Source of the DNA: Octopus vulgaris
Lineage: Eukaryota
DNA length: 64,000 bases
Assembly: GCA_951406725.2 (NCBI GenBank)
Contig: OX597827.1
Location: 62,310,001-62,374,000 of the forward strand
Direction: 5' to 3'
The notes below the pieces were generated by a model. The model made no database searches. It saw only the letters and a list, made by a program, of their open reading frames with translations, and was not told where the DNA came from. This document shows positions 23,727 through 61,209 of the stretch, piece by piece; positions within the stretch are counted from its first letter, which is position 1, and each line of letters opens with the position of its first letter. A program made the translations under genes and the position numbers.

Positions 23727-24205
23727 GTGAAATAGCTAGTTAGAAAATCTCTATAAGACATGGAAGAAGTGACTATACTACTGAGAACTAATGTTTATCG
23801 CCACTTCAATATGGCTGTTCCGTATGAATCGACATTATTACCGCTTTTAACCTCAGGAAGCGTCGCCTGCAACTGGTTGTCGATGCAATCTGCACACAAT
23901 ATATATTGCAAGCAGGGGAGCGAAGCCCTACCATCTTCTCGCAGACGACGTTATCACCAGACAGTACGGTTTCGGGCTATTTGTGTATATCATCAGCGGT
24001 GAGCACCCTTAGTCTAGAGATACCAGTAATTCCTTCCAGCTCGCAATATATATAGAACACCAAGCGACAAGCAATAGTTGTTTAGAAATATCTCTCGAAG
24101 CATGAAACTAATGGTAGTTTGGTTATATTGCGAATAATGAATTTTTTTTCGCCAATGCGGTGTTGAGAACTCATTCTCACTGCTCGAAAATAATATGCAC
24201 GTGTA
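23727..24205 (-). mobile_element. Retrozyme-like unit (single copy) between (AT)n tracts, with degenerate HHR at 23955-24001
   Basis: Minus strand caccg-CTGATGA-[tatacacaaatagccc]-GAAA-ccgtactg-TC-tggtg; shares gcca...aatatggct and cc(t/c)cagga...cg motifs with the 60.7 kb unit. Confidence 0.6.
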
Positions 24206-24207
24206 TA

Positions 24208-24443
24208 CATATATATATATATATATATATATATATATATATATATATATATATATATATATATATATATATATATATATATATATATATATATATATAT
24301 ATATATATATATATATATATATATATATATATATATATATATATATATATATATATATATATATATATATATATATATATATATATATATATATATATAT
24401 ATATATATATATATATATATATATATATATATATATATATATA
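24208..24443. repeat. Long pure (AT)n
   Basis: Direct inspection. Confidence 0.97.
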
Positions 24444-25352
24444 CACATACATACACATATATATTTATACATACATGTATATATATATTTATATATATAT
24501 ATATATATATATGGCGTATTGCATTTTATTACATATGAGTGACATTGGGAAATTCATAAAGTTTGTTTTCTCTGCACGTAACCATATTTTTCAAAGAGAA
24601 TATAGTTACGTGCAGGCCACCGTACTTAATGAGTGTTGTCAAGTGAATATAATTTTTAATTAATTGATATTATTAGCGTAATGAGAAGAAAACTCATTAG
24701 CGCTAATGGAAAATATTCTCAATATACACACTAACATACATACAAACATACATACATACATACATATATATATATATATATATATATATATATATATATA
24801 TATATGATATATATATATATATATATATATATATATATATATATTAATATATATATATATATATATATATATATATATACATATGTATATATATGTATGT
24901 ATGTATATATATATATATATATATATATATCTTTATACATCCAGAGATGCATGCTTTCATACATACATACATACATATATATATATATATATATATATAT
25001 ATATATATATATATATATTTGTGTGTGTGTGTGTGTGTGTGTGTGTGTGTGTACTACAGAGAGTCGTAAAATATAAAGGCTGTTCGTTACTTCAAGGAAA
25101 GTAAATATATAAAATGCTTGAGTATTGAAGTTCACTCCTAGTGGGGTCTGCAATGTAAAAGGTCTCAATTCTTGCTCATGCTACTATGGTTAATGTAGAG
25201 GCGCTATCTTCAATAAAAACACACGTAAAACAAACATAAAACTAAGAAAATATTGGCTAATATACACACACACACACACACACACACACACACACACACA
25301 CACACACACACACACACACACACACACACACACATATATATATATATATATA

Positions 25353-25810
25353 TGTGGCTGTGTGGTAAGTAGCTTGTTTACCAACCACATGGTTCCGGGT
25401 TCAGTCCCACTGCGTAGCACCTTGGGCAAGTGTCTTCTACTATAGCCTCGGGCCGACCAAAGCCTTGTGAGTGGATTTGGTAGACGGAAACTGAAAGAAG
25501 CCCGTCGTATATATGTACACACACACACACACACACACACACACACACACATATATATATATATATATATATATATATATATGCGAGTGTGTGTGTTTGT
25601 GTGTCTGTGTTTGTCCCCCTAGCATTGCTTGACAACCGATTCTGGTGTGTTTATGTCCCCGTTACTTAGCGGTTCGGCAAAAAGAGACCGATAGAATAAA
25701 TACTGGGCTTACATAAAGAATAAGTCCCGGGGTCGAGTTGCTCGATTAAAGGCGGTGCTCCAGCATGGCTGCATTCAAAGGACTGAAACAAGTAAAAGAG
25801 TAAAAGAGTA
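25353..25810 (+). mobile_element. SINE family A, near full-length
   Basis: gtggctgtgtggtaagtagcttg...ggttccgggttcagtccc...gactgaaacaagtaaaagagtaaaagagta tail. Confidence 0.9.
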
Positions 25811-26046
25811 TACATATTTATATATATATATATAATCATAATTATGGGTATCTAAAAGATACCGTCATGCTAGAGATAGCAGACAAAACTTGTCTCTAAA
25901 TTCACATCAAATATTCATACAGCACCAGGATATGTATATATATATATATATATATATATATATATATATATATATATATATATATATAAAAATATGAAAA
26001 ACAAGTCAAAATAGAAAATGCTAAAATAATTTTATAAAGAACATTT

Positions 26047-26084
26047 CAGTACCGGTTTCGGTCATTTTGAGACCTTTTCAACTG
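26047..26084 (-). ncRNA. Minimal hammerhead motif with U3-A8 core variant
   Basis: Minus strand cag-TTGAAAA-ggtc(tcaaaat)gacc-GAAA-ccgg-TA-ctg, inside a ~150-bp insert between (AT)n tracts. Confidence 0.6.
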
Positions 26085-26244
26085 TAACGATTAAATAATT
26101 AAATTTAGAAAAATTAAAAGAAAAGTTTTTTTAAAGGAATATATATATATATATATATATATATATATATATATATATATATATATATATATATATATAT
26201 ATATATATATATATATATATATATATATATATATATATATATAT

Positions 26245-59240: not shown

Positions 59241-59270
59241 ATTTATTCGGTCGGGTCATTATGTTTACTG

Positions 59271-59945
59271 CTGATCAAATACGCACATGGTTGAGATGGG
59301 TAATAAGATTTTCCTCGCATATACGTGTAAATATATGTATATATTCGTATTTTATACGCGGGTATTTTTATGCGTGTATATGTGTATTTTCGTTTATGTA
59401 TGATCGGTATATCTTGCTGATGAAGGTAACAAACCAGAATTTGATCTTTTTAGGGTTAACCCACCTTCAGTATCCTTAATTATTATTATATATATAATTA
59501 TATATCTATATATTGATTTTTACCTATATGGTTTTTTTATTATATGCTGGGCCCTGATAAAATCATTAATGTTTAATGATGTTATTTATAATCATGTATA
59601 CATGTATATTTATTCACTCTGATCATTATATTAACTGCTGCATTATTCTGATCAAATAAGCACGTGTTTGAGGTGGATAATAAGATTTGCCTAGTATATA
59701 CGTGTAATATTTACTTTCATTTATGTACGTTGGGTAAGCCCTACCGATGAAGATAAAATATTTATTACTAAACCAGAAATTGATCGATTTAGGGTTAACC
59801 CTATTTTTACCAAATTTTCTTTTATCCATTTTTCTCGTTTTCAATCTGTGCTAATAGAGTGCAAATTGAAGTAATTTAAAGTCATCTGACATCTATTTCT
59901 AGCATTTAGGTGTAGTTCCTTCAGTACCCTTAATTTTATCTATAT
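59271..59945 (+). mobile_element. Old tandem dimer (about 377-bp offset), each unit with an HHR remnant
   Basis: ctgatcaaata at 59271 and 59648; cores CTGATGA (59417) and cccta-CCGATGA...GAAA-ttgatcga-TT-taggg (59739-59794). Confidence 0.6.
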
Positions 59946-59970
59946 AATAATATATTTATATGTATATATA

Positions 59971-60217
59971 CGAGGGAGGGTCAAATATTATACGCACTCT
60001 TGTTTCTTGCAATGTATTTACGCAAAAGCAGGGGATAAAAAAGTATGTCATTTTTCTATACTCTCCTTCCCTTTCAATGAAATTGGTCCAACGGTCCACA
60101 AGCTTGTATATTCGCTGCAATAAGAAGGTTTTCGGTTAGTCGCGCAACCATTTATGCCCCTCTTCCTTCACATCTTCATCCGTAGGAAATCGACTGACTC
60201 GTAAACCATCTTTGAAC
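59971..60217 (-). mobile_element. mariner 3' end with TIR
   Basis: Minus strand FKDGLR..RFPTDEDVKE...KWLR...IYKLVDRW...IEREGEYIEK; TIR ta|cgagggagggtcaaatatt. Confidence 0.85.
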
Positions 60218-60239
60218 ATTTTAATAAACTATTTTTCTT

Positions 60240-60671
60240 TTATCTTTCTTCCAACCTCACTTGTGCCATGTAATTTGTGGAAAGGAAAAATTAGAAACAT
60301 TTTCTAACCACATGTTTCTATATGTTTGCCCAACGAAATTCGGCGAACATTGGTATTCCGGATTTGTTGTCTGTGGACTCGTGCACATTGCGATAAGTCA
60401 TTCCCTATCTCGCTTATATATAGTTCCTCGCAATTCAGGCATTTAATGCAGTAGATCAAATTTCTGCTTTTGAAGTTCATATCTGCATTTACGAAAGTCT
60501 GTCCATTTTTCGTTCTAATAGATCTACCAGTATGCATGTATTGACCCGTTCCACAACTGTTATCATTACACTTGGATACTGTGAATGTGTTATCCTGTTC
60601 ATATGGTTGATTAGTTATCATTTAAAACAATTTTCATTTTATTTTAGGATTGGCAAATTTGTTTTGATGAT
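60240..60671 (-). mobile_element. PLE fragment: Cys-linker and GIY-YIG endonuclease
   Basis: KCNDNSCGTGQY...SRNLIYCIKCLNCEELYISEIG...RVHRQQIR...HIETCG..FLIFPF. Confidence 0.85.
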
Positions 60672-61209
60672 GTTAAAAATGTGAGGTATACTTGCCATCT
60701 GAATATGGCTAACCACTAAGGGTGGGTGTTACTGTAGCTTGTAGCCCCAGGAGAACATCGTCTCCAGCTAGCTTTAGGCACACTTTCTGTGCCCTTATGG
60801 TATTCTGTGCCCTTATGGTATTTGCAAAGGGAGGTCACCCTTCCCTCGTCAACCTAAGTGATACGCACGGACTGCAGTTTCTAGGTTTTGACCTGTCATC
60901 AGCGTACGACAATCAGCGGTTTTCGATGAGAAGGTGTTCCAATGCAAATCCTTATATCGTTTTTCCAGTAACTTTTCGTCACTGATCTCGAAAAACTGTA
61001 TGCGAGCAATAATATATCTCTGAACAAGATATAAACAGTAACTGCACGACAATGTGAGGTATATTTGCCATCTCAATATGGCTAACCACTAAGGGTAGGT
61101 GTTACTGTAGCTTGTAGCCCCAGGAGAACATCGTCTCCAGCTGGCTTTAGGCACACTTTCTGTGCCCTTATGGTATTTCCAAAGGGAGGTCACCCTTCCC
61201 TCGTCATCC
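60672..61209 (-). mobile_element. Candidate non-LTR retrozyme: about 355-bp unit, about 1.4 copies, 12-bp TSD
   Basis: 60678-60851 repeated at 61051-61206 (first copy has an 18-bp internal duplication); tgttttgatgat at 60660-60671 and 61210-61221. Confidence 0.78.
60865..60907 (-). ncRNA. Minimal type-I hammerhead ribozyme motif (canonical core)
   Basis: Minus strand gtacg-CTGATGA-cagg(tcaaaa)ccta-GAAA-ctgcag-TC-cgtgc; one mismatch at the base of helix II. Confidence 0.8.

Follow-up and report, generated by a model that had tools for sequence, protein, structure and literature searches.

A diverged family of hammerhead-bearing, retrozyme-type elements in Octopus vulgaris with a conserved block predicted to fold as an RNA hairpin

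Three scattered units (U1, U2 and U3) in a 64,000-nucleotide stretch of the Octopus vulgaris genome (the window; contig OX597827.1, positions 62,310,001 to 62,374,000) are, as judged from their sequences, diverged copies of one non-coding, hammerhead-bearing retroelement family of the non-LTR retrozyme type. The family is new; the element class is already known. The units share a block at a fixed distance from the predicted hammerhead cut, which is predicted to form a two-stem hairpin in RNA. This hairpin may well bind a Penelope-type reverse transcriptase (RT) before DNA synthesis starts shortly downstream, a reading for and against which the case is about evenly balanced.

Three copies of one family

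Each unit consists of 1.3-1.5 monomers of ~345-373 nt and has a single hammerhead motif, of type I and on the minus strand.

23727..24195, minus strand: U1, ~1.3-1.4 monomers with a period of ~342-351 nt, flanked by (TA)n arrays.
32165..32627, minus strand: U2, ~1.3 monomers with a period of 363 nt; the repeats differ at 2 of 100 sites.
60678..61210, minus strand: U3, ~1.45 monomers with a period of 373 nt (355 without a local 18-nt duplication).

U1 looks the oldest, its repeats differing at 28 of 108 aligned sites; those of U3 differ at 6 of 160. U1 and U2 are located in microsatellites, and the 3' end of U2 abuts (CT)n/(TA)n. The periods (~345, 363 and 373 nt), present as partial head-to-tail tandems, lie within a monomer range of 150-450 bp, and the units, like retrozymes, have no protein-coding capacity. 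The few open reading frames (ORFs) of at least 90 amino acids that overlap them show no domain recognisable by eye, and tblastn found no Penelope match inside the units. Hammerheads number one per locus at U1, U2 and U3, rather than several per tandem.

The initial annotation proposed one ancient family, and collinear alignment, leave-one-out profiles and shuffle tests all indicate that the units are homologous. Its view that the units differ overall did not stand, as U2 and U3 are collinear across the full monomer, with a monomer score matched by 0/1000 shuffles. A leave-one-out profile recovered nearly the full monomer of U3 (E 1.5e-10) and two thirds of that of U1 (E 5e-7); for U2 there was no recovery at E<=1. 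The weakest pair is U1-U2, whose score was reached by 21/500 shuffles and, in a second test, by 9/1000. Identity across whole units is 44-56%, and similarity beyond shuffles is also found between U2 and U3 from the cut to the block (0/1000) and between U1 and U2 upstream (9/1000).

Outside the window, contigs of metagenome, viral and prokaryote origin were scanned with DNA patterns, with 0 matches in each, and an Atlas search gave no usable match. The best 150 of 348 Rfam matches in the window were microsatellite-driven miRNA or snoRNA hits, every one under the gathering score. Titles and abstract openings, drawn mostly from outside the subscription journals and from outside Repbase, hold no matching description of such a cephalopod family, of a conserved retrozyme stem-loop or of a chimera.

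Hammerhead motifs and helix I

23954..24002, minus strand: hammerhead motif of U1, type I; core 23996-23960 with the cut predicted after 23960; decay in helices II and III.
32330..32374, minus strand: U2 type I hammerhead motif; helix I of 6 bp, helix II of 4 bp, palindromic helix III, predicted cut after 32336.
60864..60908, minus strand: U3 type I hammerhead motif; core intact, helix I of 6 bp, helix II of 4 bp, palindromic helix III, predicted cut after 60870.
23899..24053, minus strand: U1 long helix I arm; in its outer helix 24053-24039 pairs with 23913-23899.
32283..32425, minus strand: U2 long helix I rod.
60817..60951, minus strand: U3 long helix I rod, as a predicted fold.

The type I proportions, with helix I of 6 bp, helix II of 4 bp and a short palindromic helix III, are present in U2 and U3; U2 carries a variant core, CCGAUGA (a U4C change). 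Owing to the decay of helices II and III in U1, a strict scan overlooked its hammerhead, which a looser pattern detected. The initial statement that the hammerhead helices differ in sequence yet mostly keep pairing applies to helices I-III of U2 and U3 but not to helices II and III of U1. Rfam reported no hammerhead at U2 and U3. The "ggg(g)ag...ccc" segment described earlier as part of the shared element does exist; it is the 3' arm of the long helix I, as in the rod of U2. As circular monomers compared with 60 shuffles each, U2 and U3 are more stably folded than their shuffles (z -8.3 and -4.9), and U1 is at chance level (0.03).

The shared block

23838..23876, minus strand: U1 shared block; two-stem hairpin in the consensus fold only, absent from the U1 minimum-energy fold.
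32210..32255, minus strand: U2 shared block, with a two-stem hairpin predicted and a second copy at 32573-32618.
61102..61146, minus strand: U3 shared block; second copy at ~60729-60773.
23800..23816, minus strand: U1 3' hairpin (gcca...tggc motif), a fold prediction.
61052..61084, minus strand: U3 3' hairpin, also the point at which family copies share their 3' end (60679 in the register of the other repeat).

The three ordered motif strings first noticed in these units were found again at the three block positions listed, and the gcca...aatatggct motif common to two units recurs at 23800-23816 in U1 and at 60695-60711 and 61068-61084 in U3. They had been placed on the same strand as the hammerhead, a short distance away. 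The offset is indeed fixed, but the ribozyme is on the minus strand, so that the letters quoted are antisense to its RNA and the block lies 3' of the cut. As RNA, it is found ~90-140 nt 3' of the cut in all three units. In particular, a CCTRRGGYTA marker is offset from the cut by +102 in U1, +105 in U2 and +118 in U3 (+100 once the 18-nt local duplication is removed).

Alignment against shuffled controls supports the block: pairwise local scores of the ~100-nt block domain, whose boundaries were set post hoc from the alignment, were matched by 2, 0 and 0 of 1000 dinucleotide shuffles. A 40-nt sliding scan without prior selection singled out the stretch from cut +88 to +138, the only one to beat shuffles (0-1/100) in 6/6 directed comparisons. 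Columns identical in all three units reach 14/30 in the block, and 12/30 in the hammerhead core. The proposal of a conserved cis-element is therefore upheld to the extent that the block is the best-kept part of the units, sits at a fixed offset and has a predicted common hairpin.

The wider proposal, that the block marks a retrozyme superfamily, is unsupported on three counts. Four other hammerhead-like elements in the window are without it (12/12 comparisons at chance); a covariance model finds only the training copies and their tandem twins in the window; and the block is missing from 8/8 related Penelope-like loci. A Penelope terminal repeat with the block was found neither in the window nor at the eight loci, where a profile likewise listed no hit; these loci belong to relatives of 34-54% identity, outside the cognate family, whose UTRs are short or absent. 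On this evidence, the block is a signature of the family, not of a superfamily. A contig subfamily with a different block 3' arm (loose ends at 61113 in 41, 16 and 8 contigs) indicates that the block sequence is not invariant.

As RNA, the block has a two-stem hairpin as its predicted fold. The consensus hairpin has -15.7 kcal/mol on the ribozyme strand versus -9.9 on the opposite strand, and 44/48 cells pair; 3/16 pairs are altered on both sides, a weak signal with n = 3 copies. In a covariation control, 18/500 shuffles were as good, the structure being derived from the same three sequences. Folded alone, the U1 block does not form the hairpin and 200/200 shuffles fold equally well, and the U3 block folds no better than shuffles (47/200).

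Common 3' end point and genomic copies

The 3' end of U2 lies 171 nt past the cut and that of U3, with its duplication removed, 174 nt, in the same register; that of U1 is farther off, at 233 nt, which exceeds the common point by ~60 nt. Among public contigs, 14 from run X1 and another 14 from X8 have loose ends at 61052, the common 3' end. The flanks at these ends are AT-rich and agree poorly (0.59, 0.54), which points to independent insertions. Many variant contigs of the U3 family are present, and the X1 depth summed over 11 U3 bins is 4.5e4-1.4e6 versus ~62 for the locus-identical contig, which suggests a high-copy family; summed contig depth is not true copy number, and the multi-copy result covers the U3 family only. 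The 5' end of U3 lies ~15 nt from the upstream cut position, a hint of a cleaved linear template that was dropped because U1 and U2 have no 5' end near the cut.

Penelope-like flanks of U3

60202..60682, minus strand: broken Penelope-like ORF; linker, zinc-finger-like motif and GIY-YIG, ~residues 511-695 of P0004, with 3 stops and a frameshift.
61220..61580, plus strand: inverted upstream half of the same Penelope-like ORF; end of the RT and thumb, residues 387-509 of P0004, with 1 stop and a frameshift.

By tblastn, the site of U3 is the junction of an inversion in an older, broken Penelope-like element, at ~residue 510 of a 698-aa ORF. The joint 60682/61580 occurs in 12, 13 and 1 contigs. 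For the two flank pieces, word-indexed protein searches gave no match and Pfam gave no relevant family; viral and prokaryote contigs yielded no Penelope relatives. No Penelope ORF adjoins U1 or U2, and none of the three units is a terminal repeat flanking an RT/GIY-YIG ORF end. The 3' UTRs of 2/8 related Penelope loci carry hammerheads with palindromic helix III.

The preferred history of this locus, as read from its sequence, is that U3 inserted later into an old Penelope copy, the upstream 360 nt of which was flipped then or earlier. A rather unlikely alternative is that U3 and the Penelope halves were written in a single event, in which the RT, while copying Penelope RNA, would have switched to the retrozyme at the usual start point of the latter, the inverted half being made from a second primer. 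U3 is flanked by the two halves of one ORF, which are contiguous but lie on opposite strands, an unrelated insertion would fall at the junction with a chance of ~2%, and 6-9 nt are common to the U3 3' end and the ORF, all of which favours a single event. However, the flanks look older than U3: they have 4 stops in 789 nt versus 0.45 predicted from U3 decay (P 0.001; 0.014 at the upper bound) and at least 28 near-fixed differences in 860 nt versus at least 7 in 530 nt of U3 (among 40 of 281 variant rows). A single event would require a Penelope transcript that had decayed beforehand, and the stop count disfavours such an origin from an intact Penelope mRNA.

Proposed mechanism and alternative roles of the block

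The proposed mechanism would begin with minus-strand transcription of a copy arranged as a tandem or partial tandem. Its type I hammerheads, whose helix III is palindromic, would cleave as dimers to release monomers or circles of ~350-370 nt; the motif is observed, and cutting is assumed from described retrozymes. The RNA would fold into the predicted long helix I rod and the hairpin domain containing the block. A Penelope RT/GIY-YIG protein, presumably supplied in trans, would nick AT-rich or microsatellite DNA; microsatellite targeting is a Penelope-type bias (PMC8557442). The cDNA would be started internally, ~172 nt 3' of the cut, where the common end point is observed in U2, U3 and other copies, and copying past one unit would give the observed 1.3-1.5-mer inserts.

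Among promoter, RT recognition and ligation structure, the three roles initially suggested for the block, RT recognition fits best on sequence grounds because the common 3' end lies just downstream of the block. A ligation structure was rejected on position and fits poorly, since the cut/ligation point is ~100 nt off, inside helix I. Schistosome repeats have pol III-type boxes, and newt satellite 2 has snRNA-type elements. With these precedents and the B-box-like GTTCGATGC within the U2 block, the block might be a DNA-level internal promoter (pol III A/B box or snRNA-type) for transcription of the next repeat. This is highly unlikely: the U2 B box arises from a 4-nt insertion missing in U1 and U3, and no unit has an A box on either strand, so that a pol III type 2 promoter, with conserved A and B boxes, fits poorly and was rejected. 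Moreover, pairs changed on both sides point to RNA structure. A tRNA origin was rejected, as ARAGORN found no tRNA in the window, and a bacterial-type promoter was also rejected.

The hairpin could instead be kept for the life of the RNA circle (its fold, stability, host-protein binding or holding the hammerhead silent or active). Retrozyme circles are described as highly self-paired, and some unidentified mechanism is suggested to keep their ribozyme blocked in vivo (PMC7229834); the whole U2 and U3 monomers are strongly self-paired, and several other helices retain pairing despite letter changes. Nevertheless, those other helices drift while the block retains sequence plus pairing, the ligation point is ~100 nt from the block, and a single end point just 3' of the block domain is left unexplained; a circle role is therefore considered unlikely. 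It is decidedly unlikely that the block has no special role and is merely the most-alike remnant of a diverged family, aided by GC-richness and by being copied first and so least often truncated. With n = 3, the small lead in three-way identity over the hammerhead core, the 44-56% identity of whole units and the pairwise similarity elsewhere agree with such a remnant; the sliding scan, in which the block alone is significant in every directed comparison, and two changes within it that fall on both sides of a pair argue against it.

Comparison with known systems

The octopus units most resemble metazoan non-LTR retrozymes (Cervera and de la Pena 2020, PMC7229834), in particular the Mytilus repeats of 350-390 bp. 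Shared features are non-coding 345-373-nt monomers, a type I hammerhead with short palindromic helix III, a circle predicted to be highly self-paired in U2 and U3 but not in U1, high copy number in the U3 family and coexisting Penelope-like elements. The octopus loci, unlike those described in that text, hold one hammerhead (1.3-1.5 monomers) and not a tandem of at least two; the comparison is with retrozymes that form circular RNA, while the octopus units are known here as DNA sequence. The same text calls retrozyme sequences species-specific and, in the part available, names no conserved non-ribozyme hairpin or fixed 3' end. The hammerhead proportions of the octopus units (6/4/short palindrome) are those of the "canonical" metazoan type, not the minimal type.

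In vertebrates, retrozymes have been proposed to be non-autonomous derivatives of Penelope pseudo-LTRs (pLTRs), on the evidence of co-occurrence and pLTR homology (Li, Clavereau, Pollet, bioRxiv 10.64898/2026.07.22.740005). As in that case, monomeric or partial copies are dispersed in a Penelope-bearing genome, and the proposed mobilisation in trans fits the octopus structure. Unlike that case, no pLTR homologous to the octopus units was found in the window or at the 8 loci, but the units have a common 3' end, and U3 occupies the junction of an inverted Penelope element. Hammerhead-carrying pseudo-LTRs of Penelope elements (Cervera and de la Pena 2014, PMC4209133; Craig et al. 2021, PMC8557442) resemble the units in partial-tandem structure, microsatellite targets and inverted segments; the octopus units, however, flank no ORF end, and U3 is mid-ORF.

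The Poseidon element PAc of Anolis carolinensis (Frangieh et al. 2024, PMC11167929) offers a parallel for the start of DNA synthesis. Its RT begins within the RNA, in a stem-loop that lies 3' of the hammerhead cut; its targets are AT-rich, and its genomic ends mark start sites. PAc is autonomous, and it starts 85-92 nt past the cut, versus ~172 nt in octopus. The linker of the Penelope-like element neighbouring U3 has a zinc-finger-like motif of the Neptune/Nematis type, not Poseidon. The RNA required by PAc reaches ~55-60 nt 3' of the start site, whereas the octopus block lies 5' of the start point. This difference counts against the RT-recognition reading, as do the number of independent copies (n = 3), the weak covariation control, the folding of the U1 and U3 blocks and of the U1 circle no better than shuffles, the variant block arm in contigs, the failure to find the block in Penelope terminal repeats of the window and the eight loci, and the deviating 3' end of U1.

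Implications

Retrozymes are thought to be mobilised by Penelope-like elements; in the part of the literature available, the basis is co-occurrence and terminal-repeat homology, and the mechanism is stated as unresolved. A conserved hairpin beside a common 3' end is a concrete candidate for an RT recognition site, one that can be put to the in vitro assay already established for Penelope. Without an RT role for the block, the units would be an ordinary new retrozyme family. Tentatively, and with doubt prevailing, the block hairpin and the fixed start ~172 nt past the cut are proposed to be a cis-signal that recruits Penelope RT to animal retrozymes, with U3, microhomology-primed at an inverted Penelope junction, as the enzyme's footprint. 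If so, the hairpin and start would be the non-autonomous counterpart of the internal start of the anole element, and the proposed partnership between retrozymes and Penelope would become a defined, mutable RNA element.

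One diverged family of hammerhead units

Each of three minus-strand units (U1, U2, U3) carries one type I hammerhead motif, found by motif scan, and a non-ribozyme block. The three strings by which the initial annotation had recognized this block were located within the units.

23727-24195, minus strand: U1; predicted cut after 23960; block strings at 23838-23876
32165-32627, minus strand: U2; predicted cut after 32336; block strings at 32210-32255
60678-61210, minus strand: U3; predicted cut after 60870; block strings at 61102-61146

Since the hammerheads lie on the minus strand, the RNA carries the reverse complement of the strings, with the block 3' of the cut. 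The units had been described as differing overall; in fact, their similarity extends beyond the block, U2 and U3 being collinear end to end and unit identity being 44-56% over aligned columns. Of 1000 shuffles, 9, 1, and 0 reach the monomer-versus-monomer scores of the respective pairs. Leave-one-out profiles recover U3 over positions 17-364 (E 1.5e-10) and U1 over positions 133-374 (E 5e-7); U2 was not recovered at E<=1. Similarity beyond the block, collinearity, and profile matches thus identify U1, U2, and U3, at the level of sequence, as diverged members of one family.

The block withstood the shuffle control: a domain of ~100 nt, with boundaries picked after inspection of the alignment, is matched by 2, 0, and 0 of 1000 shuffles. 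Moreover, in an unselected 40-nt sliding scan, cut+88..+138 is the sole window at 0-1/100 shuffles in all six directed comparisons. The internal marker CCTRRGGYTA lies at +102 (U1), +105 (U2), and +118 (U3) from the cut; the last becomes +100 once an 18-nt duplication is removed, and a contig of public run X17 is without this duplication.

All units are partial tandems, with periods of 363 nt in U2 (repeats differ at 2/100 sites), 373 nt in U3 (6/160), and ~345 nt in U1 (28/108, similarity still above that of 1000/1000 shuffles). U1 and U2 are embedded in (TA)n/(AG)n arrays. The U1 repeats are ~26% different, yet a 15-bp helix (partly AT repeat) is intact; instead of simple age, this may reflect an insert composed of monomers from two subfamilies.

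Hammerheads and predicted fold

The hammerhead core is intact in U3 and reads CCGAUGA in U2, and helices II and III of U1 are decayed; an Rfam search reported no hammerhead at U2 or U3. Helix III is palindromic in U2 and U3, with pairing between two copies of -11.7 and -12.5 kcal/mol (U1, -5.4), which is the dimer arrangement of PMC4209133. A U4-to-C change in the core, giving CCGATGA, was observed at 32368, 48347, and ~59752, in three apparently unrelated elements; such recurrence may point to a genuine variant and not to decay.

As circular monomers on the ribozyme strand, U2 and U3 fold far better than 60 shuffles (z -8.3 and -4.9), and U1 no better (0.03). In each unit, helix I has a long extension, formed with the region 5' of the ribozyme, and the paired letters differ from unit to unit; the 'ggg(g)ag...ccc' segment of the annotation is present, but is the 3' arm of this extension. 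The block consensus is predicted to fold into a two-stem hairpin followed by a second, 3' hairpin, at -15.7 kcal/mol for the ribozyme strand and -9.9 for the opposite one; in this structure, 44/48 cells pair and 3/16 pairs are changed on both sides. As 18/500 column shuffles do as well, n is three, and the structure was derived from the same sequences, these two-sided changes are weak evidence of structure. When the ~40-nt block is folded alone, 0/200 shuffles are as good for U2, 47/200 for U3, and 200/200 for U1.

Common 3' end and copy number

The 3' ends of U2 and U3 lie 171 and 174 nt past the cut (U3 with its duplication removed), in register with each other and directly beyond the 3' hairpin; that of U1 lies at 233 nt. 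Contigs of 4 of 24 listed public runs were aligned to 60200-61600 at 80% likeness. In run X1, summed depth is 4.5e4-1.4e6 in 11 bins over U3 and 7.8e2-3.5e4 in 19 flank bins (1.2e5 in one). The locus-identical contig stands at 62, so the U3 family is high-copy, although depth sums give no copy count. At 61052, the internal equivalent of the U3 3' end, at least 14 contigs of X1 and at least 14 of X8 have loose ends (among the 24 of 1052 loose-end rows listed, too few to estimate a background). The letters beyond are AT-rich and agree poorly between contigs (0.59, 0.54), the pattern that independent insertions stopping at one point would leave. Loose ends at 61113 (at least 41, 16, and 8 contigs among the matches listed) reveal a subfamily in which the 3' arm of the block differs. 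At an X15 loose end at 60873, helix II has, by inspection, G-C where U2 has A-U.

The U3 locus

DNA left of U3 gave 314 protein matches, among them P0004, a Penelope-like protein of 698 aa with an RVT_1 match (below the curated cut-off), a GIY-YIG match, and a linker Cys motif, which is a Neptune/Nematis feature according to PMC8557442.

61220-61577, plus strand: P0004 residues 387-509 (tblastn)
60682-60202, minus strand: P0004 residues ~511-695 (tblastn)

Contigs joining 60682 to 61580 on opposite strands (12 from X1, 13 from X8, 1 from X15), together with the opposite-strand ORF halves, place U3 at the point where a single, broken Penelope-like ORF changes strand, its inversion junction; chance placement there is ~2%. 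To the left of U3, the Penelope copy seems to be cut short by a presumed mariner-like end (~59972-60190).

The U3 3' end has 6-9 nt in common with the Penelope-like ORF. The flanks look older than U3: they hold 4 stops in 789 nt, whereas decay at the rate of U3 would give 0.45 (P 0.001-0.014). The favoured reading is that U3 inserted afterwards, priming at this microhomology, and that the upstream half was inverted at that time or earlier; less probable is that U3 and flanks were written together, in a single event involving a Penelope transcript that had already decayed. The locus is compatible with handling by a Penelope enzyme and does not prove it.

Distribution of the block

The block had been proposed as a superfamily signature. 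A comparison with the 3' sides of four other hammerhead-like elements in the window did not detect it (12/12 comparisons at chance), no match better than E 0.63 came from eight related Penelope-like loci (metagenome contigs), and pattern scans of three sequence collections gave 0 matches. A covariance-model search of the window returned training copies and tandem twins only, plus a chance match (E 1.4). As far as the window and those eight loci show, the block is a signature of one family. In two of the eight, L001 (3132-3162) and L002 (1444-1474), a type I hammerhead whose helix III is palindromic lies in the 3' UTR, sense to the ORF. The end of L001 is 177 nt beyond the cut, near the 172-nt spacing of the retrozyme units, which may be coincidence; L002 ends at 121.

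Elsewhere in the window, a second hammerhead element (12035-12375, plus strand, core 12173-12208) lies in a ~340-nt unit with a diverged partial repeat, without the block (fold z -1.7). Two diverged repeats ~365 nt apart (59216-59800) each hold a decayed hammerhead-like core on the plus strand (59417; ~59752), and the block is absent from them. A near-perfect inverted repeat of 885 nt (40016-41917, 99.8%) comprises the terminal part of a Penelope-like ORF (GIY-YIG; 40868-41149) and its 3' UTR, with a hammerhead-like variant core (CTTGACAA...GAAA) at ~41788-41821, by eye; it is either a recent, inverted insertion of a different Penelope family or a fold-back in the assembly. One 184-186-nt repeat, presumably SINE-like, forms tandem arrays and dispersed copies (9289-10092, 18831-19477, 42955-43292, 56516-57146). 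By their motifs, ORF fragments at 2306-2791, 5298-5684, 12619-13810, 23202-23543, and 36070-36459 seem to resemble Tc1/mariner transposases, those at 16293-16874 and 4513-4809 the restriction-like endonuclease of non-LTR retrotransposons, and those at 1045-1623 the Penelope linker; the last gave no P0004 match at E 0.01 and no Pfam match.

Possible role of the block

Minus-strand units of this one family, partial tandems with hammerhead motifs, would be transcribed, and dimeric hammerhead cleavage of the transcript would then yield circles, whose RNA is predicted to fold as a rod plus hairpin. A Penelope RT could bind the block domain, at its fixed offset, start ~172 nt past the cut, where U2, U3, and other copies have their common 3' end, and mobilise the element; the observed sites are embedded in microsatellites or Penelope sequence. 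An anole element (PMC11167929) provides a model for such an internal start: its RT begins within a stem-loop, 111-118 nt into the ORF, the cut maps to +26, and the genomic ends record where RT began. However, the start-to-cut distance differs, and the anole element needs RNA 3' of the RT start, unlike the octopus block.

By this analogy, the block is a putative RT-recognition site, a reading with about an even chance of being right. That it serves the fold of the RNA circle is unlikely; U2 and U3 fold well as circles, and U1 does not. Slightly less probable is a block without special role, against its standing out in the unselected scan. The promoter role also raised in the annotation is the least probable, as only U2 contains a pol III B box and none of the units an A box.

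A search of titles and abstract starts did not find this family, a conserved retrozyme hairpin, or a Penelope chimera; the supplement of PMC7229834 may show related structures. That paper describes non-LTR retrozymes, including 350-390-bp mussel repeats, and bioRxiv 10.64898/2026.07.22.740005 argues for a retrozyme origin from Penelope terminal repeats. U1, U2, and U3 thus belong to a known kind, the non-LTR retrozymes, to which they add a testable candidate cis-element.
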